The notes under the pieces were generated by a model, which was given only the letters and a program-made list of their open reading frames with translations, did not search any database and was not told where the DNA came from. From NCBI RefSeq assembly GCF_056746865.1, contig NZ_JBWKMP010000003.1: DNA of 64,000 bases; one strand, written 5' to 3'. Made by a program: the position numbers and the translations under genes. Below are positions 1 to 53,990 of the stretch, in pieces. The number at the start of each line of letters is the position of its first letter. Within the stretch, counting starts at the first letter, position 1. The stretch comes from a plasmid.

Positions 1-99
1 AAGATAGAAGCTCAATTACGAAAGGAGCAGCGTCAGTTGGTGGCGATGACTAACCAGCTATGGAACGCCGCTGTGAAAAAACGTGAGGCTTCCCTATGA
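1..99 (+). CDS. 3' end of an upstream gene (partial, hypothetical)
   Basis: Frame is open from the window edge (KIEAQLRKEQRQLVAMTNQLWNAAVKKREASL*). Its TGA (97-99) overlaps the ATG at 96 of the next gene (ATGA coupling). Confidence 0.4.
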   Translation, partial: KIEAQLRKEQRQLVAMTNQLWNAAVKKREASL

Positions 100-1460
100 C
101 GTTAATTAACTGGGAAGCGCATCGAGCTAAGTTCCTGGAGTTAAGAGAAGAAACCGGGATCACCATAAAAGAATATTGCGAGCAGCATGACCTCAGCTTT
201 AACACCGCCAGAAAGCATCTCAATATGAAAAAAAATGAGGTTAAGGCGAAAGCTAAGGCTACCGGGAAAAGTACAAAACAGCGCGCAAAAAGCAGCGCCA
301 CCGGCTCAAAAAAAGAGCAAAAAAAGGCTAATAAAAGCACAGAATTTACAAAAACTGACAAATCGTTGGCTGGTGGACGGTTCCGCGCCATGCCGCAAAA
401 ACAAAATGCGGATCACAAAGAAAAGCCAAGTAATAACAACAAGATACACAAGGATGTGAAGGGATCATTTTGTGATGAAATGGGAGAAATGATCCCTAAA
501 AGCAGCGATAAAGCCCAACGAAACAAGGGATCATTGCAAATGATCCCTGATTCATCAGCTCAAAGCACCACTTTGCCTGCCACCAACGTCGCCCGTGAGA
601 TGATGAAGAACGGCGCGACTGAACATTTACGACTTGCGATACAGATGGCGCAGGAACGAGCAATTCAGTATCAGGCTATCGTTGACCAGGAAGCGGAGCG
701 ACTACAGGAAGAGATTGACGCCCTCGGTGATACACAGCCAGAGGGGATGCACCCAGGGCAGCGTCTTCTCGGACTGATCAGCGATGCGGCCTACTACATG
801 AATGACTTTATCACCAGGCTGGCAGCCATCTATCAGAACGAGCAGAAGCTACGCCAGGGGGATGAAAAACTTGCGCAGGGCGCGCGTCAGCAGGCATTCA
901 GGGAGGCTGAGGCCAGAGAAAAACTGGCGATTGCCCGCCTACAAGCCGAGCAGCGTGGCAAGGAGATTGAGTATCGCATTGGCGCTGACGCACGCGCCGC
1001 CAGGGTTATCGCCGCCGCTATACGTATGCGTGAGCGCGAGGAGCTGGATGATATAGGTGTTGCTGAATATATCGAGCGGCAGGGCGTCAGTGTCCCGGCT
1101 ATCCTGGCGGCACGAGCGGCAAAAGCGATCTCACTTCTGGAGCCTCCGGTTTCTGACGTTAACGATGTTGATGATGAGCAACTGGATAAAGAGGCGAAGC
1201 AGTTTGCCGAGCAACAAGCTGGACTCCCACAATGGCTTGCACAACGCCGGGCTGAAGTAGCGAAAATCGTTGATAGGCTTGGGATGGGGGATTACGACCG
1301 GAACGGAGAACGTAAAGCCGGTGAATTTGAGGCCAATGATGAAGACCTGAATATAGACCCTTCCGCGACGGCTGATATCTACGGTGATTATGACGCGGGG
1401 GATACCGGTTTTGATGCTGTAGATGACGAGATTGCGATAGACCAGCCGGAGGATGACTAA
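96..1460 (+). CDS. pacA: terminase small subunit, P1 PacA-like
   Basis: 454 aa. N-terminal HTH-like segment (ITIKEYCEQHDLSFNTARKHL) as in P1 PacA. The stop overlaps the large-terminase start (TAATG at 1458-1462). Contains a GATC-repeat cluster. Confidence 0.6.
   Translation: MTLINWEAHRAKFLELREETGITIKEYCEQHDLSFNTARKHLNMKKNEVKAKAKATGKSTKQRAKSSATGSKKEQKKANKSTEFTKTDKSLAGGRFRAMPQKQNADHKEKPSNNNKIHKDVKGSFCDEMGEMIPKSSDKAQRNKGSLQMIPDSSAQSTTLPATNVAREMMKNGATEHLRLAIQMAQERAIQYQAIVDQEAERLQEEIDALGDTQPEGMHPGQRLLGLISDAAYYMNDFITRLAAIYQNEQKLRQGDEKLAQGARQQAFREAEAREKLAIARLQAEQRGKEIEYRIGADARAARVIAAAIRMREREELDDIGVAEYIERQGVSVPAILAARAAKAISLLEPPVSDVNDVDDEQLDKEAKQFAEQQAGLPQWLAQRRAEVAKIVDRLGMGDYDRNGERKAGEFEANDEDLNIDPSATADIYGDYDAGDTGFDAVDDEIAIDQPEDD
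459..548. repeat. four alternating-orientation copies of a GATC-containing motif inside pacA (candidate pac site)
   Basis: AAGGGATCATT at 459-469 and 525-535; its complement AAATGATCCCT at 488-498 and 538-548. Each copy carries a Dam site. P1 pac is a cluster of GATC-containing repeats inside pacA. Confidence 0.35.
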
Positions 1461-4423: not shown

Positions 4424-5452
4424 ATGGGTGAACTAGTTATCTCCGGCGGTTCTGGTGGTTTTCTGCGCGATATTGGCACCGAATACCAGGAAGCTGCAAA
4501 AAACTTTATGCAGTTCATGAACGACCAGGGAGCTTATGCTCCAAATACGCTTCGAGATCTCCGTCTGGTGTTTCATTCCTGGGCGCGGTGGTGTAATTCG
4601 CGCCAGCGCCCCTGGTTCCCGATTACGCCGGAAATGGCCCGCGAGTATCTTCTCCAGTTGCATGAGGCCGATCTGGCCTCGACCACCATTGATAAGCACT
4701 ATGCCATGCTTAACATGCTGCTTTCGCAATGTGGCCTCCCGCCGCTGTCGGACGATAAAAGTGTGTCTCTGGCCATGCGGCGCATCCGGCGCGAAGCGGC
4801 AACGGAAAAAGGCGAGCGAACAGGCCAGGCTATACCGTTGCGGTGGGATGATCTGAAATTGCTCGACGTGTTGCTGTCCCGTTCCGAGCGGCTGGTGGAC
4901 CTGCGCAATCGGGCGTTTCTCTTCGTGGCATACAATACCCTGATGCGTATGTCAGAAATCTCGCGCATCCGCGTCGGAGATCTGGACCAAACAGGTGACA
5001 CTGTAACGCTGCATATTTCACACACGAAGACCATCACGACCGCCGCCGGACTTGATAAGGTGCTTTCTCGTTACACTACCGCCGTACTGAACGACTGGCT
5101 GGAGGTGTCCGGACTTCGAGAACATCCGGACGCGGTGCTATTCCCGCCAATACACCGCAGTAATAAGGCCAGAATCACGACAACGCCCCTTACTGCACCT
5201 GCAATGGAGAAAATATTCAGCGATGCCTGGGGGTTGCTGAACAAACGAGATGCCACGCCGAACAAAGGAAGATACCGGACGTGGACAGGCCATAGTGCGC
5301 GTGTTGGTGCGGCAATTGATATGGCTGAGAAACAGGTGTCAATGGTCGAGATCATGCAGGAAGGTACATGGAAAAAGCCCGAAACACTTATGCGATATTT
5401 GCGCCGTAGCGGGGCATCCGTTGGTGCAAATAGTCGCCTGATGGACTCATAA
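4424..5452 (+). CDS. dre: Dre-type (Cre-family) tyrosine recombinase
   Basis: 342 aa. Cre-like layout with the catalytic-region motifs HSARVGAA and TLMRYLR. Matches my recollection of phage D6 Dre over almost the whole length. Adjacent to an exact rox site. Confidence 0.93.
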   Translation: MGELVISGGSGGFLRDIGTEYQEAAKNFMQFMNDQGAYAPNTLRDLRLVFHSWARWCNSRQRPWFPITPEMAREYLLQLHEADLASTTIDKHYAMLNMLLSQCGLPPLSDDKSVSLAMRRIRREAATEKGERTGQAIPLRWDDLKLLDVLLSRSERLVDLRNRAFLFVAYNTLMRMSEISRIRVGDLDQTGDTVTLHISHTKTITTAAGLDKVLSRYTTAVLNDWLEVSGLREHPDAVLFPPIHRSNKARITTTPLTAPAMEKIFSDAWGLLNKRDATPNKGRYRTWTGHSARVGAAIDMAEKQVSMVEIMQEGTWKKPETLMRYLRRSGASVGANSRLMDS

Positions 5453-5457
5453 ATTAA

Positions 5458-5467
5458 TTTTCTAACA
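5458..5467. promoter_or_regulatory. operator-like site TTTTCTAACA
   Basis: The 19-nt string ATAAATTAATTTTCTAACA is identical to the one after ref (25208-25226). Sits at the head of the 5525-9410 operon. Confidence 0.45.
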
Positions 5468-5497
5468 ACCTTTTTAGACAGTGCATTTTAATGTAAA

Positions 5498-5527
5498 GTA
5501 CCCTCGCCTATTGCGGAGGGTACTTTG
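5498..5527 (+). terminator. rho-independent terminator after dre
   Basis: GTACCCTC (5498-5505) pairs with GAGGGTAC (5516-5523), followed by TTTG. Confidence 0.6.
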
Positions 5528-5869
5528 CACAATCGTATTACGGAATCAAAACGCTTCACTGTTGACGGTTACACCATAACCTTCACTGCGGGCGTTAAGC
5601 GCGACCAGGCGGTCGTGGTGTTCGGTGTTATGACCGGACTTGATGCCGTTCCCGTATTTACCCTCGAAAAAAACTGGCGAAATCTGGAGGAAGCTGAACG
5701 CTACGTCCGGAAAGTAACCGTCATTGCTGCTGAAAAACTCCTGGCCCACTATCAGGAAAATTATCGCGCTATGACCGAGAAAATTAACCATGTTTTCACT
5801 CGCCCCACCAGCGGCTTCATTGCCCCTGATGCGAATGCCGGGCGCTATCCGGCAAGGGGGCGCAAATGA
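5525..5869 (+). CDS. hypothetical protein
   Basis: 114-aa ORF with a TTG start just after a GGAGGG that is also the terminator stem. The stop overlaps the next start (ATGA at 5866). The start is uncertain. Confidence 0.4.
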   Translation: MHNRITESKRFTVDGYTITFTAGVKRDQAVVVFGVMTGLDAVPVFTLEKNWRNLEEAERYVRKVTVIAAEKLLAHYQENYRAMTEKINHVFTRPTSGFIAPDANAGRYPARGRK

Positions 5870-6354
5870 AAACTTACTACCCATCCCTGAACTGTTATCC
5901 AACCACTAATCCTGAGCTGTCAGGGAAACTTCTGTCCCTCCTGGCTGATAGTCCTGATGAATGGCATAAGCCTGGTGATATCAACACACAGTTCCCTGAG
6001 TACGGGTGTATCCGCACCCGAAATGAGCTGAAGAACCTCATTGCTCACGGTTTTGTCCGTCACCGTAGCGGGAAAGGCTATCAGTTGGCTATCCCACAAG
6101 GAGAGGCAAGAGAACTCTTTGGCTATCGAGAAAGCCAGACGCAAGCGCGGGTGATCGCAGAAATTATCCGTAATGGCAGCGTCTATGCCCGCAAATTCTG
6201 GCTGTCTGGCGGTGGTGATGCATCACAGTTCTTGCGTGCTGTGCGATCGCTGGAGGAACAAGGTGTTATCGAGAATACCTGCGTCTCCGTTCCGACCGCT
6301 CCGCATATCAAACGCCGGATTTATACATTTACCCGGAGAGCTAAAAAGCAATGA
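5866..6354 (+). CDS. hypothetical protein (possible winged-helix repeats)
   Basis: 162 aa; ATGA-coupled at both ends (5866 and 6351). Confidence 0.6.
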   Translation: MKTYYPSLNCYPTTNPELSGKLLSLLADSPDEWHKPGDINTQFPEYGCIRTRNELKNLIAHGFVRHRSGKGYQLAIPQGEARELFGYRESQTQARVIAEIIRNGSVYARKFWLSGGGDASQFLRAVRSLEEQGVIENTCVSVPTAPHIKRRIYTFTRRAKKQ

Positions 6355-6845
6355 TTAACGTGAAAGTGAAACGCCTTCATCCGGCGGCAAAACTCCCCGT
6401 TTACGCCACCGCCGGATCGGCGGCGATGGATTTTGTTGCTGTTGAAATAACGCCGGGTATCGATAGCAACGGCGCTATTTCCTCAAGCTGGTGGGTGCAT
6501 ACCGGCCTCGCTATGGCGATCCCTCCTGGCTGGTGTCTGAAACTTTATCCTCGTTCCGGATTGGGCTGCAAAAAGCATACGCGCCTGGCTAACTGCGTAG
6601 GAATTATCGACTCCGATTATCGCGGTGAAATCAAAGCAAAACTGATTACAGATCCCGGTGGTGAAGGCGTTTGCCTCAAGCCAGGAATGGCGGTCATGCA
6701 AGGCATTTTTGAGCGTGTTGAACCGGTATCGCTGGTAGAAGTTGATGAACTCGATGAAACAGAGCGAGGTGCTGGTGGCTTTGGTAGCACATCGGAAGAC
6801 CGCATTGAAATCAAGCGTACACCGCTTCAGTACGCAAAGTTTTAA
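6351..6845 (+). CDS. dut: dUTP pyrophosphatase (trimeric dUTPase)
   Basis: Motifs AGSAAMD, PRSGLG, GIIDSDYRGE and C-terminal RGAGGFGST. Confidence 0.9.
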   Translation: MINVKVKRLHPAAKLPVYATAGSAAMDFVAVEITPGIDSNGAISSSWWVHTGLAMAIPPGWCLKLYPRSGLGCKKHTRLANCVGIIDSDYRGEIKAKLITDPGGEGVCLKPGMAVMQGIFERVEPVSLVEVDELDETERGAGGFGSTSEDRIEIKRTPLQYAKF

Positions 6846-35910: not shown

Positions 35911-35957
35911 GCAAAACTGTGTTAGATAATTGAGTTTTATTTTCTAACACAGTTTTG
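35911..35957. promoter_or_regulatory. inverted pair of operator-like sites within a 16-bp-arm palindrome
   Basis: GCAAAACTGTGTTAGA...TCTAACACAGTTTTGC. Lies just upstream of rdgC. Confidence 0.55.
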
Positions 35958-35963
35958 CGAAAC

Positions 35964-36869
35964 ATGAGATTAGTCGCCTTTAAAAACATATACGTCTATC
36001 GCCTTGCCCGCGAAATTAAACTGGACTCAACCACCGTTAGTGATGCCTTAAGCCAATTCACATTCACTCCATGCGCATCACAAGAAATGGCAAAAGTCGG
36101 ATGGGTGCCGGTTCTGGCTGACAACCTGATCCATGAATACCACGGTTTTCTACTTCTCCAGCAACAGCGAGAAATTAAGCTCCTGCCCTCTCATGTCATT
36201 AAGGAGGAAGTGCAGAAAAAAGTGGAAAAGCTCGAAAATGAGCAATCTCGTAAGCTGAAGAAGTCGGAAAAAAACACCCTGAAGGATGAAGTTCTCCACT
36301 CTTTGTTGCCTCGCGCATTCACTCGCAAATCATTGTCGCGAATCCTTATTGATCGCGACAACTATCTGGTCTTCGTAGAAGCTTCCAGCGCCAGAAAAGC
36401 AGAAGAAATGCTGGCGCTCTTACGTAAATCACTTGGCAGCCTGCCAGTGATTCCATTCACGCCGATAGAACCGCTCGAAATGACTATGACCGAATGGTTC
36501 AAGTCAACATTTCCTCAAGGCTTTAAAGCAGGCGAAGAAGCCATATTGAAATCTCTGTTCGATGACGGCGGCGCAGTTCGTTGCAAGAAAGTAGACCTAC
36601 AGTCAGAGGAAATAATGACTCATATTGAAGCCGGAAAAGTTGCAACAACAGTTGCAATCAACTGGCAGGACCGCGCGACCTTCAGGTTAAACGATGACAT
36701 GAGCATCAAAGCACTGACGTTTTGCGATGATCTCTATGACCAGAACGATGACATCGACCGTGAAGATGTTGCCCAGCGATTTGATGCTGACTTCATTCTG
36801 TTCACAAGCGAATTATCCGCGATGTTTAGCTCGCTGGTGGAGGCCATTGGCGGTGAAGCAGAGCATTAA
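35964..36869 (+). CDS. rdgC: RdgC-like recombination-associated protein
   Basis: Colinear with E. coli RdgC (FKNIYVYRL; FTPCASQEMAKVGWVP; LKDEVLHSLLPRAF; LRKSLGSLPV; DIDREDVAQRFDADFILFT). Confidence 0.85.
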   Translation: MRLVAFKNIYVYRLAREIKLDSTTVSDALSQFTFTPCASQEMAKVGWVPVLADNLIHEYHGFLLLQQQREIKLLPSHVIKEEVQKKVEKLENEQSRKLKKSEKNTLKDEVLHSLLPRAFTRKSLSRILIDRDNYLVFVEASSARKAEEMLALLRKSLGSLPVIPFTPIEPLEMTMTEWFKSTFPQGFKAGEEAILKSLFDDGGAVRCKKVDLQSEEIMTHIEAGKVATTVAINWQDRATFRLNDDMSIKALTFCDDLYDQNDDIDREDVAQRFDADFILFTSELSAMFSSLVEAIGGEAEH

Positions 36870-36885
36870 TAACCGACCGCTGGCG

Positions 36886-37533
36886 GTGAGTCTTTGTGAT
36901 TATACAGGGAATATGGTTTCCCCCTGGCTGGAACACGGCATTGATGCAGTCATTGTCGATCCGCAACACCAGGAGTCCGGCAGCCAATTGATGGAGTCAG
37001 GTGCTGTACTCACACGTATCAGCGCAATTATTGACAGTGATGAGGTCTACAATTTCCTTCGGAAAAATTTGCACAGAGTTGTATTTTTAGCCGGTTTCCC
37101 TCCATGTACTGACCTGGCTGTATCTGGCGCACGCTGGTTCGCAGATAAAGCAAAAAAAGATCCGGTTTTCCAGTTCAAAGCAATGCAGGTTGTCTGGCAG
37201 TGTTACGACATTGCAAAGATGATTGGTTGCCCGTACATGATTGAAAACCCGGTCAGCCAAATATCGACATTCTGGCGTAAACCTGATCACATATTCCATC
37301 CTTATCACTTCACTGCATATTGCAAGGAAGACAATTACACCAAAAAAACATGCCTGTGGAGCGGACAAGGATTCATCATGCCAACTCCGCGAATCGACAA
37401 GTCGTTAGGTGATCCAGATAACCGAATACACAAGGCACCGCCAGGGCCTGAAAGAGCGAATTTTCGTAGCGCGACACCTTACGGTTTTGCAAGAGCTGTA
37501 TTTGAAGCAAATAAGGAGGGAATCCGTGGCTGA
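36886..37533 (+). CDS. DNA (cytosine-5) methyltransferase-like protein
   Basis: About 215 aa from a GTG after the rdgC stop. Motifs LAGFPPCTDLAVSG (PC motif IV) and MIENPV (ENV motif VI). Confidence 0.5.
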   Translation: MSLCDYTGNMVSPWLEHGIDAVIVDPQHQESGSQLMESGAVLTRISAIIDSDEVYNFLRKNLHRVVFLAGFPPCTDLAVSGARWFADKAKKDPVFQFKAMQVVWQCYDIAKMIGCPYMIENPVSQISTFWRKPDHIFHPYHFTAYCKEDNYTKKTCLWSGQGFIMPTPRIDKSLGDPDNRIHKAPPGPERANFRSATPYGFARAVFEANKEGIRG

Positions 37534-38285
37534 TATTGGTGCTAAATTTATTTCTTATAGCGACAATCATCGTCCTGCGGCGGAAGCCACTATCAGCCAT
37601 ATGCGACGTATTCGCTCGGAGGACGAATTTGATCGCCCAGTCTTTAAGTGGGTCGGCGGCAAATTTTCTGCACTGCCCATTATCTTCGAACACCTGCCCC
37701 ACGGAAAACGGTTGATAGAACCTTTCGTTGGAGGTGGCGCTGTTTTCACTAATGCCGGATTTAAAAGCAACCTGCTGAACGATATCAATAATGACCTGAT
37801 TAACTTCTATCAGACATTGCAGCGTGAAGGGCATTCTCTTATCACACTGGCATATCGTTTTTTTCAGGATTACAACTCTGCTGATGCATTTTTGAATGTT
37901 CGCAATGCATTCAACAATGGTGCTTATGATTCCCTTCACCATGCAGCGGCGTTCCTGTATCTCAATCGTCATTGTTTTAATGGCGTCACTCGCTATAACC
38001 GTAAAGGAGAGTTCAACGTCGGATATGGAAAGCAGAAATCACCCCACTTCCCTCTCGCGGAAATGGAGGCGTTCCTGGCTGACGATATTTCAAAGTATTC
38101 GGAATTTGTGTCCGGCGATTTTGCTGGTGTAATTGAGGCTGCCGGGAATGATGATGTGATTTTCTGCGATCCCCCCTATGAACCATTGCCTGACACTACC
38201 GGATTTACAAATTACTCAGGGCATAGCTTTAGGTTTGAAGATCAACAACGGCTGGTGTCACTGCTGGTGGATGCTGGATTTGCCC

Positions 38286-39191
38286 CTATATTTCCAGACA
38301 CCTGTTATCACTTAACCCATTACTGGCCCGCTGCCGTAGATATTCCCGTGGCGAGCGATAACCCAGTGCACTATGCGGATGCCATTCGTTATAATGCTCG
38401 AACGCCTCTGCAAGGTTCTTTGCTGCCGTTAACCCGTCTGGTTTAGGCATGATACTGATGTAGTCACGCTTTATCGTTTTCACGAAGCTCTCTGCTATGC
38501 CGTTACTCTCCGGACTCCGCACCGCCGTGTTCTTCGGTTCAAGCCCCAACATCCGGGCAAACTGCCGTGTTTCATTAGCCCGGTAGCATGAACCATTATC
38601 CGTCAGCCACTCTACTGGAGACGCCGGAAGCTCGTTGCCGAAGCGGCGTTCCACCGCTCCCAGCATTACGTCCTGTACTGTTTCACTGTCGAAGCCGCCC
38701 GTAGTGACTGCCCAGTGCAGTGCCTCACGGTCACAGCAGTCCAGCGCGAACGTGACTCGCAGTTTTTCTCCGTTATCACAGCGGAACTCGAACCCGTCAG
38801 AGCACCATCGTTGATTGCTTTCTTTCACGGCCACTTTGCCAGTATGTGCCCGTTTCGATGGCGGTACAGCGGTTTTTCGCTCAAGCAACAGCGCATTCTG
38901 GCGCATGATCCGGTAAACACGTTTGGCATTGATCGCAGGCATACCATCAAGTTCGGCCTGTCTGCGAAGCAGCGCCCATACCCGACGATAACCATACGTG
39001 GGCAGCTCTCCGATAACATGGTGTATACGGAGAAGCACATCCGTATCATCTGAGTGACGGCTGCGGCGACCATCTTTCCAGTCATCGGTTCGTCTGAGAA
39101 TGACGTGCAACTGCGCACGCGACACCCGGAGACAACGGCTGACTAAGCTTACTCCCCATCCCCGGGCAATAAGGGCGCGTGCGCTATCCAC
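38286..39191 (-). CDS. insD: IS2 OrfB (InsD) transposase catalytic part, expressed by -1 frameshift from OrfA
   Basis: 301 aa with the DDE region. An A-run slippery site lies in the orfA/orfB overlap (around 39190-39200). Confidence 0.93.
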
Positions 39192-39514
39192 TTTTTTGCA
39201 CGCCCGTATTCAACGGCTTCTTTAAGGAGTTCATTTTCCATCGTTTTTTTGCCGAGCAGGCGCTGGAGTTCTTTAATCTGCTTCATGGCAGCAGCAAGTT
39301 CAGAGGCAGGAACGACCTGCTCTCCTGCGGCCACAGCAGTAAGACTTCCCTCCTGGTATTGCTTGCGCCAGAGAAATAACTGGCTGGCTGCCACACCGTG
39401 TTGCCGGGCAACAAGGGAGACCGTCATTCCCGGTTCAAAACTCTGCTGAACAATAGCGATCTTTTCCTGTGTAGTACGCCGTCTGCGTTTCTCCGGTCCT
39501 AAGACATCAATCAT
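39149..39514 (-). CDS. insC: IS2 OrfA (InsC)
   Basis: 121 aa: [41 protein letters not shown]... Confidence 0.93.
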
Positions 39515-39780
39515 CTGCTCTCCAATGACTAGTCTAAAAACTAGTATTAAGACTATCACTTATTTAAGTGATATTGGTTGTCTGGAGATTCAGGGGGCCA
39601 GTCTAGATGCCCACAGACGCGGAGCGAAAATTGTGATAACAAACAGTGGTGCGCCTAACATTCGCGAACTTTACGTTGGCAATGGCTTCAAGGTGTATCC
39701 TATGCCATCCCGTCGCTCTGTATCCTGTAAAGCATCAACGCGAATGATAGCTAACGACATTATAGCCACACTTAATTAAG

Positions 39781-39802
39781 AAAAGCCCCATATGGGGCTT
39801 TT
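39781..39802 (+). terminator. rho-independent terminator after dam
   Basis: AAAAGCCCCA-TA-TGGGGCTTTT. Confidence 0.7.
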
Positions 39803-39827
39803 ATAACATCAAACAAGCACCGTTACG

Positions 39828-39860
39828 GTACACTAACAACACCATTCTGGTACTAAAAAG
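39828..39860. repeat. two tandem copies of CACCnTTnnGGTAC(n)TAA (candidate centromere repeats, downstream flank of the parA operon)
   Basis: CACCGTTACGGTACACTAA and CACCATTCTGGTACTAAA. A related copy lies at 41034-41051. Confidence 0.35.
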
Positions 39861-39914
39861 GAATCAAAGTAGCCTCAAAATAACACATGGACCCAAAACG
39901 GTGTCATTCCGGCG

Positions 39915-40202
39915 TCATTTTGTATCCTCAGACTCTGCAAGCATGAGGATAGCATGGCGGATCATATTCAATTTGCTGCGATTATGCTTTTTGCTTAACG
40001 CATCAAGTACCTGGTACTCGTATTCATTGAAGCCAACACGAATGGATTTAAAATCACGTGGGGCGTCCTTATCGAGCACTTTGTTGTCTTCTGGTTGCTC
40101 ACCCGGCACCAAATCAGCTTTGCTGGCAAAAGCCTCAATTCGGCGTTCAAGATCGAGGTCTTTTACTTCGGGGGCTTTTACCGATTTACGAGGCTTAATC
40201 AC
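39915..40202 (-). CDS. ribbon-helix-helix centromere-binding protein (ParG/type Ib ParB-like)
   Basis: 95 aa. Disordered basic N-terminus plus an RHH C-terminus (FKSIRVGFNEYEYQVLDALSKKHNRSKLNMIRHAILML). Overlaps the parA stop. Confidence 0.65.
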   Translation of the reverse strand: MIKPRKSVKAPEVKDLDLERRIEAFASKADLVPGEQPEDNKVLDKDAPRDFKSIRVGFNEYEYQVLDALSKKHNRSKLNMIRHAILMLAESEDTK

Positions 40203-40836
40203 TTAATAACTCCTTAACCAACATCTGGATTTCACCTTTAGCTTTCCCGTTGTCCATCTCAACAACGCCCTTCCCTTCAGCCATACAATCGCGGTAAACC
40301 TTGCGATCGCGAATGATGGTTTTCAGCAACTTCAGTTGCGGATATTCAGCCAGGTACTCTTTGGCCTCATTGGCTTCATTCACAACCGGATTGGATGGGG
40401 CCATTGTTAAAACTGCGCACGCCTTAATGCTAGGATTAGGCATCAGATCCAAAGCCTCTTCAAAGACTTCAACAAAATGCGCCAGCGTGTCTAAATCTGG
40501 CTGAGATGGCCTGAATGGAACAAGCAAAACATCCGCCGCAGTAATACCGGTGCGCATCTCTTTGCTATCACGACCAGCGGTATCAACAACCACAAATTCA
40601 TAACGCTTGTCCAGATCAAGAAGTGTTTCACGAATATTCCCAAACTTCTGGACGCAATGAATTACTGGAGAAACCTCTGCCGCATTACGGTCCGATGCCC
40701 AACGGGCAGATGTTCCTTGCTTATCTGCATCAAGTAGAACTACGTCCTTATTTGCGCGGGCAAGCTCCGCACAAATGTTTACGCTGGTGGTTGATTTGCC
40801 ACAGCCACCTTTTTGGCTGGCTACCAATATAATCAT
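40195..40836 (-). CDS. parA: ParA-family partition ATPase (type Ib, short)
   Basis: 213 aa. Deviant Walker A SQKGGCGKST, followed by VLLDADKQGT. Confidence 0.9.
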   Translation of the reverse strand: MIILVASQKGGCGKSTTSVNICAELARANKDVVLLDADKQGTSARWASDRNAAEVSPVIHCVQKFGNIRETLLDLDKRYEFVVVDTAGRDSKEMRTGITAADVLLVPFRPSQPDLDTLAHFVEVFEEALDLMPNPSIKACAVLTMAPSNPVVNEANEAKEYLAEYPQLKLLKTIIRDRKVYRDCMAEGKGVVEMDNGKAKGEIQMLVKELLSD

Positions 40837-52618: not shown

Positions 52619-52912
52619 TTGAGGGCAATATCTACACCTGCTGTTTACGTCAATGATGGCATTTTTTACACATCACAACAAAATCAACGCGTTACAACCA
52701 TAAAACATTCAACAGTAGTGCGATAAAAATAGCTATAGCATACGATGCCATCTGAGGGTGATTTTTACACATTCCTTATTAATCAATAAATTACAAATAA
52801 TGTTAGCCGTTAAAGATCCAACCAACTAACTAATGATGTAAGAATTGCCCTCAATCTCCCATCTTTAAGGGCAAATCCTACACCTACAGAGAGGTGTAGA
52901 AATTGCCCTTAA
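52619..52912. repeat. downstream iteron array (incA-like)
   Basis: Iteron consensus TGAGGGCAAatCTTACACCT. Plus-orientation copies at 52619-52640, 52752-52773 and 52865-52885, with a degenerate copy at 52654-52674. Minus-orientation copies at 52835-52854 and 52892-52912. Confidence 0.7.
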
Positions 52913-53664
52913 GACTGCTGATAGGTGAATTTTATTTTTGTAACTCTGCCACCTTCTGTAACCTCTGAGAAAACTATTTTCATTTTTGTGTTTTTTTCGA
53001 TTTCAGCTACAGCTTTTGCCAGAAAGCTTCTCTTAAATTCGGCGTACCGTTGATAGCTTTTGGGAAGACCATAACGCTCCCGCATCCATTCAACGCCAAG
53101 TATAGCGAAGCCGCTCCCATCATCCTTTCTATACTGGCATAAGGACTCATAAAGCCGCATAGAATAAGGGTTTGTCAGGCGAGACACTTCAGTAAAATTC
53201 AGCCTCGTGAACCTCTTATCAAGCAGAGTAAAAAACGGCATGAGATATGGATTCAGATGAATAATGTAAGTCCCCCGGCGTGGTGAGTAAGCCTCCTTAA
53301 TCATCCAGGGATAAGACTCATAACTGTCTTCTGATTCGGTTGATTCATCAGGGTTATATATCGTGACTTTCTTCTCACTAAGTCCGGAGATAGCTTTACG
53401 AATATCCTTGCTGGCTTCAGCAGAGGGCAAATTATACATCTCTGCATATTCGTTGACCGTCAACTCACAGGCACCTGAACCAAGAACGCCATCCTTAGAA
53501 GCATAGCGAAGTCTTCCCACCACAATAAACAACAGTCGCTTTTGGTCGCGTGTCAGGTGATAAGCCGCCTCTGTGATCTCATTGGCCTGCGCCAAGCTAC
53601 GGCTAATTGGTGTCGCTGATTCAATCAGACTGACGGCTTTTGCCGTTAATTCCGCTCTGTTCAT
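52909..53664 (-). CDS. repA: iteron-binding replication initiator RepA (Rep_3 family)
   Basis: 251 aa from MNRAELTAK. Flanked on both sides by roughly 20-bp iterons. Winged-helix Rep pattern (LTRDQKRLLFIVV..., NPYSMRLYESLCQY...). Confidence 0.85.
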   Translation of the reverse strand: MNRAELTAKAVSLIESATPISRSLAQANEITEAAYHLTRDQKRLLFIVVGRLRYASKDGVLGSGACELTVNEYAEMYNLPSAEASKDIRKAISGLSEKKVTIYNPDESTESEDSYESYPWMIKEAYSPRRGTYIIHLNPYLMPFFTLLDKRFTRLNFTEVSRLTNPYSMRLYESLCQYRKDDGSGFAILGVEWMRERYGLPKSYQRYAEFKRSFLAKAVAEIEKNTKMKIVFSEVTEGGRVTKIKFTYQQS

Positions 53665-53687
53665 AACCCTGTGTGATCCTTCAAATG

Positions 53688-53807
53688 GTGAGGGCAATTT
53701 TTACATCACTTTGAGGGCAATTACTACACCTTTTGAGGGCAAATCTTACACCTGCTGAGGGCAAATCTTACACCTCAATAGCTTAATTGAGGGCAAATCT
53801 TACACCT
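53688..53807. repeat. five direct iterons over the repA promoter (incC/origin-like)
   Basis: Copies at 53688-53708, 53711-53731, 53733-53753, 53755-53775 and 53787-53807. The three central copies are spaced exactly 22 bp apart. Confidence 0.8.
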
Positions 53808-53839
53808 TGGTCCTCTACAAGCCCCGCCACCCCTGGCCT

Positions 53840-53990
53840 CCGCGATGCCTAAAAAGGATCTAAAAAGGATTAAAAAGAGAAAAAGGTTTATAAAAATACT
53901 CTGTGGATATGTGAATTGCGTCACTTAAGGTGTAAAAATCACCCTCAATAGTTGCTGTTCGATCGACAAAGATCCTTATTCAATACTCCC
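53840..53990. other. oriR: probable replication origin core
   Basis: AT-rich with an AAAAAGGAT(C) triple repeat (53851-53885). DnaA-box-like TGTGGATAT (53902-53910). Inverted iteron at 53927-53948. GATC sites at 53857, 53961 and 53972. Confidence 0.5.

Follow-up and report, generated by a model that had tools for sequence, protein, structure and literature searches.

The 64,000-nucleotide stretch of DNA that we analysed (hereafter the window) comes from a phage-plasmid of E. coli that is D6-like and related to P1, and a complete copy of IS2 in it has split the element's dam gene. We are highly confident of the account as a whole, in which IS2 entered dam recently and host Dam would compensate for the loss, by analogy with P1. 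The window covers ~64 kb of an element of ~92 kb, as relatives of which we found D6 and about 100 D6-like plasmids; the DarB-like SNF2/methylase gene of the relatives falls outside the window. The interrupted gene belongs to a conserved block of three genes, in the order rdgC, a mini C5-methyltransferase-like gene, and dam, which are joined by stop/start overlaps and end at a hairpin (Table 1). In particular, there is an overlap of 17 nt between the rdgC stop and the C5-like start, and one of 8 nt between the C5-like stop and the dam start. Note that the first gene of the block is labelled rdgC in a relative and hrdC-like in D6.

Table 1 Features of the dam region and of the GATC-bearing sites (positions in the window)
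Feature	Position	Strand	Evidence or remark
Four GATC-containing hexamers (TGATCC / GGATCA), candidate Dam-sensitive pac site	463..545	.	GATC sites denser here than anywhere else in the window
rdgC / hrdC-like recombination-associated gene, first gene of the block	35955..36869	+	PHROG 724, E 1.5e-119
Mini C5-methyltransferase-like gene, intact, 226 aa	36853..37533	+	PHROG 757
dam 5' fragment, codons 1-249 plus 2 nt	37526..38274	+	GTG start, AAGGAGG ribosome-binding site
Target-site duplication GATGC, left copy, 5 bp	38270..38274	.	Sequence
IS2 (IS3 family), complete, 1331 bp, opposite to dam	38275..39605	-	100% identity to an E. coli IS2 copy
IS2 orfB, 301 aa, DDE/rve integrase core	38286..39191	-	PF00665 E 8.5e-20; PF13683
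IS2 orfA, 121 aa, HTH_Tnp_1 transposase N-terminal part	39149..39514	-	PF01527 E 2.4e-19; ATG at IS position 92
Target-site duplication GATGC, right copy, 5 bp	39606..39610	.	Sequence
dam 3' fragment, last 56 codons plus stop	39611..39779	+	Continues the frame of the 5' part when the IS and one copy of the duplication are taken out
Hairpin AAAAGCCCC ATAT GGGGCTTTT, perfect, just past the dam stop, between convergent genes	39781..39802	.	RNAfold -14.6 kcal/mol
Origin-like region: five iterons (TGAGGGCAAATCTTACACC-like), then an A-rich stretch	53697..53975	.	GATC at 53857, 53961, 53971

The inserted element, the single IS2 copy of the window, has its IRR at 38275 and its IRL at 39605, with the transposase genes on the minus strand. 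Its terminal inverted repeats are imperfect (TGGATTTGCCCC... and TAGACTGGCCCCC...), and the overlap of orfA and orfB contains the A6G -1 frameshift site AAAAAAG at 39191-39197 (IS position 409). The features that mark an IS2, namely the length and identity, the two overlapping ORFs with A6G, and the imperfect repeats with a 5-bp duplication, were all present. Over its full length the element is 100% identical to a copy in NZ_CP102854.1 (E. coli); thousands more copies are at least 95% identical, and 5452 records cover at least 80% of the element. In itself, this IS2 is no different from the copies in the databases, and its sole novelty is the site of insertion. The extent and 1331-bp length that an earlier, sequence-only reading had given for the IS, together with its perfectly matching GATGC duplication, were confirmed from the sequence coordinates, and the ORFs at 37409-38446 and 39525-39779 are, as that reading stated, read-through into and out of the IS.

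We entertained the idea that the IS2 comes from an assembly error, with a repeat collapsed or misplaced into a dam gene that is really whole. In keeping with this idea, IS2 is a highly repeated sequence of E. coli (4899 of 5426 genomes have it, at a median of 4 matching places per positive genome and a maximum of 41), and no other database record shares the junction. It is almost certainly wrong, since a complete IS with both ends and an exact 5-bp direct duplication is the signature of real transposition and not a product of misassembly; moreover, the duplicated target sequence occurs just once in an IS-free relative.

Removal of the IS and one copy of the duplication joins 37526-38274 to 39611-39779 (918 nt) and restores an uninterrupted Dam-family frame of 305 aa with the motifs FKWVGGKF, EPFVGGGAV (motif I), and DPPY (motif IV), in agreement with what had been claimed from the letters of the DNA. 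All three motifs are carried by the 5' fragment, including the AdoMet motif FxGxG (as EPFVGGGAV) and the catalytic DPPY. The translation of the 3' fragment, which ends IATLN, is 100% identical to that of the IS-free relative. For comparison with this relative, the E. coli plasmid NZ_LR890273.1, we used positions 36700-38274 joined to 39611-40250 (2215 nt with the IS removed). The two matched in one piece at 99.9% DNA identity, with 3 differences (38191, 39740, and 40012), and the two differences inside dam are both synonymous. The restored ORF aligns end to end with intact homologs, as the sequence-only reading required of it: the protein is 100% identical to WP_016262374.1 of NZ_LR890273.1 and 76% identical to orf63 of phage D6. 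The restored ORF also matched PF02086 (E 1.7e-53; 182 bits against a cut-off of 22) and TIGR00571 (E 1.3e-68; 231.6 bits against a cut-off of 114.85), and it aligned with the E. coli Dam structure 2g1p (E 1.6e-51) through residue 302. Finally, it is 69% identical over 285 aa to residues 471-753 of P1 Dmt (E 3e-149), whose Dam half is annotated in the P1 record as methylating GATC. The identity to P1 Dmt and the match to E. coli Dam suggest that the restored Dam would be GATC-specific.

To judge from the sequence, the insertion is both recent and private. It is private and recent because the IS2/dam junction is missing from related plasmids in the collections that we searched (5426 complete E. 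coli genomes and the 72,556 plasmids of PLSDB), and it is recent because the two copies of the duplication match perfectly, the IS does not differ from copies now in circulation, and both dam fragments are free of non-synonymous changes. The earlier claim that IS2 recently entered a Dam-family gene and left it otherwise undamaged is supported; against the relative, the only further differences in dam are two silent ones. When the E. coli genomes were searched with dam, all 88 matches were in a single piece and none was split by an insertion. That dam is uninterrupted in all 88 D6-like plasmids of these dam+ genomes suggests that selection maintains it even alongside host Dam, so that its loss is possibly costlier than the precedent of P1 implies.

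The insertion might itself have been selected, through relief of over-methylation toxicity, through escape from a methyl-adenine-dependent defence, or through IS2 antisense transcription that lowers expression of the C5-like gene. The IS2 transposase genes do read toward the dam 5' fragment and the C5-like gene, and the upstream gene and all else are preserved, as such a scenario would have it. We nevertheless consider selection very unlikely, given that none of the 88 relatives carries a second, independent disruption of dam and that a single private allele, otherwise unchanged, has the look of a neutral or mildly harmful recent event. The disruption of the gene is real yet routine.

A complete IS2 has inserted itself at codon 250 of dam, which has 305 codons, and has duplicated the target GATGC. 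The dam coding sequence of the window is no longer continuous: it is split after codon 249, and its last 56 codons are moved 1336 bp downstream. The interrupted gene now encodes residues 1-249 followed by 57 IS-derived residues, a fusion product that keeps motif I, the DNA-recognition region, and DPPY. The last 56 residues are missing from it, among them the 'VITNS' strand and the strands at the C-terminal end of the catalytic Rossmann core. Since the fragment retains its central region as well as the AdoMet and catalytic motifs (EPFVGGGAV and DPPY), and the reading frame runs 57 codons into IS2, one could suppose that the truncated Dam with its IS-encoded tail is still active and that the element's Dam is not functionally lost. 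We regard this as highly improbable. The Pfam and TIGRFAM Dam profiles and the alignment with the E. coli Dam structure reach residues 280-302, and D6, P1 Dmt, and E. coli Dam all conserve the segment that was lost. In Dam structures this segment includes strands of the catalytic core, which the fusion product would lack. From the loss of the C-terminal core we infer that the truncated Dam is inactive.

The hairpin that follows dam was not listed by a simple terminator scan and was confirmed by folding instead. It looks like a terminator, which would make dam the final gene of its transcription unit. Since dam is the last gene of the unit, no polarity would be expected on downstream genes, and the methyltransferase-like gene upstream is untouched. 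Methylation of GATC sites in the element would now depend on host Dam.

The sequence-only reading raised the prospect that loss of Dam affects functions with GATC sites. Candidate sites of this kind exist. The GATC-rich site is real and lies within a pacA-like terminase gene (96-1460; the ORF matches PHROG 1711, terminase); all four of its GATC positions are conserved in the pacA of D6, though the local identity is ~62%, and the pac hexamers of P1 are a precedent for it (PMC10028697). The origin-like region adjoins an ORF (52909-53697, minus strand) that is the counterpart of a RepB-family initiator in a relative; GATC sites were found at two of the origin positions named earlier (53857 and 53961), with the third at 53971 rather than at 53972. 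Over the whole window there was no enrichment of GATC (218 sites against about 245-313 expected). As for the effects themselves, they are likely to be mild in E. coli, since the phage Dam of P1 is essential only in Dam-minus hosts (PMC12707154). By this analogy, a dam+ E. coli host should still allow the candidate pac site and the origin to function and lytic growth to proceed; the functional impact there is probably small, with host Dam covering most of the loss. The possible costs are that virion DNA would end up under-methylated when lytic replication is fast and that the element would fail in hosts deficient in Dam.

The gene upstream of dam is intact, and the 8-nt overlap with dam reported earlier (37526-37533) is correct. 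The start proposed at 36886, however, gives way to a GTG: the gene most likely starts at 36853, since a GGAGG lies 10 nt upstream, both elements are conserved in D6, and the N-termini of homologs agree. Residues 3-223 of the protein matched PHROG 757 ('DNA methyltransferase') over profile positions 9-221 of 247 (E 3.5e-78). The description of this ORF as cytosine-5-methylase-like stands insofar as the protein carries the PC (motif IV) and ENV (motif VI) motifs of C5-methyltransferases and has the fold of their catalytic domain, but it has no match to PF00145. In an alignment of 39 family sequences with identities down to 32%, C85, E131, and N132 are invariant and P83 occurs in at least 90%; P84 is invariant in a 31-sequence family alignment. 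No model of Pfam or NCBIfam matched the protein, none of the 39 diverse members of the PHROG 757 family matched PF00145, and neither the single sequence nor two family profiles found a match among PDB sequences. With these sequence searches empty, the C5-like assignment rests on the motifs, the fold, and the PHROG match.

The family of the upstream protein comprises at least 2,524 clusters at 50% identity, mostly from phages and prophages, and its members are nearly always 200-280 aa in size. The sizeable target-recognition domain between motifs VIII and IX is missing from the protein of the window, in which YTKKTCLW and RSATP are spaced only about 35 residues apart. Literature searches returned no experimental characterization of the family, including of cytosine-C5 methyl transfer to DNA. 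One tentative and rather doubtful suggestion is that the small protein modifies cytosine in DNA and selects its targets in an unusual way (a very short or relaxed site, or single-stranded DNA), maybe acting with Dam in P1/D6-type elements; the possibility of joint action comes from the translational coupling of the two genes and from one apparent natural in-frame fusion of both families, on a 2-kb metagenomic contig (P0121, run SRR32529081). (An obligatory adenine-methylase partner for the small methyltransferase was rejected, as an adjacent N6-methylase occurred just once across five bacterial prophage contexts and three further phage contexts.)

These findings do not overturn current understanding, and their significance lies mainly in annotation: the two ORF calls at the ends of the IS should be merged as one disrupted dam pseudogene, and the start of the upstream gene should shift to 36853. 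As a natural dam knockout in a D6-like phage-plasmid, the allele offers a way to learn whether phage Dam matters when host Dam is present, with respect to pac cutting, origin firing, and the sensitivity of virion DNA to restriction, and it could expose any methylation signature that the small, co-transcribed C5-like enzyme leaves, free of the Dam signal. If the reading of the small protein as a cytosine-modifying enzyme is true, the IS2 allele would be a ready-made Dam knockout in which to isolate its activity.

When compared to D6, the window has its dam in the same position as orf63 (a site-specific DNA-adenine methylase), in the same length class and with the same start position. The D6 gene starts with ATG at the homologous position whereas the start in the lineage of the window is GTG, and D6 has glnS downstream of dam whereas this lineage is without it. 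Both D6 orf63 and WP_016262374.1 are uninterrupted, in contrast to the dam broken by IS2.

The small protein is set apart from canonical C5 enzymes such as DNMT3B, M.HhaI, the prophage methyltransferase 3g7u, and the C5-carboxymethyltransferase 8yf3, in that at ~220 aa it is too short for a target-recognition domain of normal size, and in that its motif I is a degenerate CDxTG where the canonical form is FxGxG. Its likeness is to members of PHROG 757 (D6 orf64, Citrobacter phage Stevie gp47, and phage JSE EpJSE_00196), which are also ~220 aa and with which it has LCDxTG, DPQH, FPPCTDLAVSG, ENPV, YTKKTCLW, and RSATPxGF in common. In most of the phages and prophages examined, the PHROG 757 gene stands alone with no adenine methylase adjacent, whereas in the window and in D6 it is translationally coupled to dam.

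The two genes had been said to resemble a split version of P1 Dmt. The resemblance holds for the Dam half and for gene order (rdgC/hrdC, C5-like, Dam): hrdC of P1 is directly upstream of dmt, just as the block of the window places its two methylase-like genes downstream of hrdC/rdgC, and Dmt has a C5-type module N-terminal to Dam where the window has a C5-type gene upstream of dam. It does not hold for the C5 half, which is unrelated in sequence. The N-terminal half of Dmt is a canonical PF00145 C5 methyltransferase (E 1.6e-35), whereas the upstream gene of the window is from a different and much shorter family, and comparison of the upstream protein with that half revealed no homology (BLASTP E 4.1; hhalign probability 0.2%). 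On these two comparisons we rejected a literal fission of a P1-type Dmt as the origin of the two genes. By sequence comparison, 'split Dmt' is thus a description of arrangement and not of ancestry: P1 Dmt is a single bifunctional polypeptide of 754 aa, whereas the window has two ORFs in different frames with an 8-nt overlap.

The dam gene of the element is interrupted by an insertion sequence, the only IS2 copy in the window (see the table for features). The sequence of 36700-40000 and a mechanical ORF list agree with what a sequence-only reading had described, namely an IS2 flanked on both sides by the pentamer GATGC, and two flanking ORFs, dismissed in that reading as artefacts, that are indeed dam fragments running into and out of the IS ends. 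From end to end, the IS2 segment has the same sequence as an IS2 copy of an E. coli plasmid; matches to it occur in 4899 of the 5426 complete genomes of E. coli searched, where the annotation is IS3-family transposase. Because of this full-length match, and because orfA, orfB and the A6G slippery site are all present, the copy looks complete and functional.

Features of the window that bear on the interrupted dam gene
Feature	Position	Strand	Detail
pacA-like terminase ORF	96-1460		
Four-GATC cluster	463-545		densest in window; within pacA-like ORF
RepB-like ORF	52909-53697	minus	
Origin-like region	53697-53975		five direct iterons (TGAGGGCAAATCTTACACC-like), then A-rich stretch AAAAAGGATCTAAAAAGGATTAAAAAGAGAAAAAGG
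GATC in origin-like region	53857, 53961, 53971		
C5-methyltransferase-like gene	36853-37533	plus	226 aa
dam, restored	37526-38274 + 39611-39779		IS2 and one GATGC copy taken out
ORF running into IS2	37409-38446		dam fragment
ORF running out of IS2	39525-39779		dam fragment
GATGC duplication	38270-38274 and 39606-39610		
IS2	38275-39605		1331 bp; begins TGGATTTGCCCC, finishes GGGGGCCAGTCTA
orfA	within 38275-39605	minus	121 aa, PF01527
orfB	within 38275-39605	minus	301 aa, PF00665, PF13683, PF13276
A6G slippery site	orfA/orfB overlap of IS2	minus	
Perfect hairpin	39781-39802		after dam stop; -14.6 kcal/mol

Several observations point to the insertion being a recent and private event. In particular, neither the 5426 complete genomes of E. 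coli nor 72,556 PLSDB plasmids gave a record spanning the dam-IS2 junction, and dam matches in the E. coli genomes are single uninterrupted pieces in 88 of 88 cases. Moreover, the GATGC duplication has no mismatch, circulating copies of IS2 match this one exactly, and the differences of the two dam fragments from the IS-free E. coli plasmid NZ_LR890273.1 are all synonymous. The main interpretation made earlier, that IS2 recently knocked out the Dam of the element and that its C5-like neighbour is intact, holds. (Note that because IS insertions in prophage and plasmid genes are commonplace, the disruption of dam is itself of low interest.)

The restored dam join is an open frame of 918 nt (305 codons). 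When used as a 2215-nt query (36700-38274 joined to 39611-40250, IS2 left out), the region matched NZ_LR890273.1 as one ungapped piece with 99.9% identity and three differences, at positions 38191, 39740 and 40012. Lack of an end-to-end alignment between the restored ORF and intact homologs had been named as grounds for rejecting the reading, but such alignments exist: the protein has 100% identity to WP_016262374.1, the 305-aa Dam of NZ_LR890273.1, and can be aligned from end to end with phage D6 orf63 (76% identity). Matches to PF02086 (E 1.7e-53), to TIGR00571 (E 1.3e-68, far over the cut-off) and to the E. coli Dam structure (E 1.6e-51, aligned to residue 302) show that the restored protein clearly belongs to the Dam family of enzymes. 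Note that current RefSeq marks the intact dam of NZ_LR890273.1 (72459-73277; 22459-23277 in locus L012) as a pseudogene 'missing N-terminus' (window equivalent 37526-37625). Older PLSDB annotation gives a 305-aa protein with a GTG start, and D6 has an ATG at the same position; the flag looks like an annotation quirk arising from the GTG start and a poorly conserved 35-aa N-terminal extension.

IS2 breaks Dam after residue 249. The predicted product retains the AdoMet motif EPFVGGGAV and the catalytic DPPY, and has the final 56 Dam residues (ending ...IATLN) swapped for 57 IS-derived residues. Because D6, P1 Dmt and E. coli Dam all conserve the missing segment, which falls inside the Dam profiles and, in Dam structures, supplies strands of the catalytic core, we infer that the interrupted enzyme would have lost its activity. 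The genes 3' of the hairpin that follows dam are convergent, and no downstream polarity from IS2 is expected.

Loss of Dam had been suggested to matter for functions that carry GATC sites. The window is not enriched for GATC (218 sites versus about 245-313 expected). The hexamers of the four-GATC cluster alternate in orientation (GGGATCA and TGATCCC), and all four sites are exactly kept in D6 pacA, where surrounding identity is only ~62%. The P1 pac site lies inside pacA and is made of GATC-containing hexamers (PMC10028697); by analogy, the cluster is likely a pac site. The origin-like iterons adjoin the RepB-like ORF, and the region is a probable plasmid origin. The GATC-bearing regions themselves stand, and make dependence on Dam plausible; the functional consequences of Dam loss are speculative and likely modest. 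P1 reportedly cannot do without its own methylase only when the host is Dam-minus (PMC12707154), and by the same token loss of dam is probably tolerated in dam+ E. coli. That 88 of 88 relatives have kept dam speaks against the gene being fully dispensable.

The frame of the upstream C5-like gene is open from 36727. Since GTG 36853 and a GGAGG 10 nt upstream of it are kept in D6, the D6 annotation (orf64) gives the equivalent start, and homologs from many genera have 8-12 residues ahead of an invariant LCDxTG motif, we favour this GTG, which sits 17 nt before the rdgC stop; the start at 36886 proposed in the sequence-only reading is less likely. That the gene is intact was borne out, since its protein is 100% identical to that of the IS-free relative. 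RefSeq starts the gene at an ATG equivalent to 36913, which would remove the family-invariant LCDxTG.

No Pfam, NCBIfam or PDB sequence match to the upstream protein was found, even with family-profile queries; it does match PHROG 757 'DNA methyltransferase' (E 3.5e-78). Its family comprises 7688 clusters at 90% identity (E <= 0.001), 2524 representatives of clusters at 50% identity, almost all of them 200-280 aa long, and 1571 phage records by tblastn. Sequences as distant as 32% identity all share C85 (FPPC motif), E131-N132 (ENP), K164, T166 and R205. An AlphaFold2 model (pLDDT 85, pTM 0.84) gave weak Foldseek matches to C5 methyltransferase families in the PDB, and its best matches among viral models were equal-sized phage proteins labelled DNA-cytosine methylase. 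Motifs and predicted fold thus support the label C5-methylase-like. As a compact branch of its own, the family lacks a recognition domain of normal size, and literature searches found no experimental work on it; this large, uncharacterized family is the only moderately interesting by-product of the dam analysis. One member, P0219 (548 aa), carries an intein-like insert inside catalytic motif IV, directly after FPPC, which is the likely origin of Hint, LAGLIDADG and HNH Pfam matches in a member-wise scan and hints that FPPC is a functional active site. The small fold also matches part of the BFVD models A0A6J5NPY6 and A0A6J5SE15, which represent phage proteins 1126 and 1397 aa long (one labelled helicase/UvrB-like); from these models, larger DNA-processing proteins appear to employ the domain as a module.

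Of eight other neighbourhoods of the small gene, taken from five bacterial prophages and three phages, most have no adenine-methylase gene next to it, which rules out Dam as its obligatory partner. A lead for a functional link is P0121 (563 aa; 218-1909 of a single 2-kb metagenomic contig, L016, run SRR32529081), in which a small C5-like domain is fused in frame to a Dam domain; the linker is similar to the extension at the N-terminus of the split Dam, and both contain 'DNHR'. The fusion could be an indel error. An RdgC gene lies ~0.5 kb (Kushneria) or ~3 kb (Agrobacterium) upstream of the small gene in distant prophages too, which suggests that the rdgC-methyltransferase association recurs beyond P1 and D6.

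Phage D6 matches the dam region, as do ~100 plasmids of E. coli, Salmonella and Shigella that are non-mobilizable and roughly 90 kb in size. These matches, together with the gene order (baseplate genes, rdgC, orf64, orf63 (dam), then ParA-like and ParM partition genes), identify the window, by sequence, as part of a D6-like, P1-related phage-plasmid. In D6, a glutaminyl-tRNA synthetase gene (4781-6442 of its locus, L002) separates dam from the ParA-like gene, whereas the window has only a short intergenic stretch with the hairpin at this place (39780-39915). In P1, dmt lies directly 3' of hrdC and codes a protein of 754 aa whose N-terminal part carries PF00145; PF02086 covers residues 493-725. 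The two methylase genes of the window had been likened to a split version of Dmt. That comparison holds for the arrangement, a C5-type module and then a Dam module after rdgC, and for the Dam half (69% identity to Dmt residues 471-753), but not for the C5-type half, for which neither BLASTP (E 4.1) nor hhalign (probability 0.2%) detects any similarity to the Dmt N-half. The C5-type modules belong to different families, and it looks as if one had replaced the other in the same place, and not as if a Dmt gene had simply been split.
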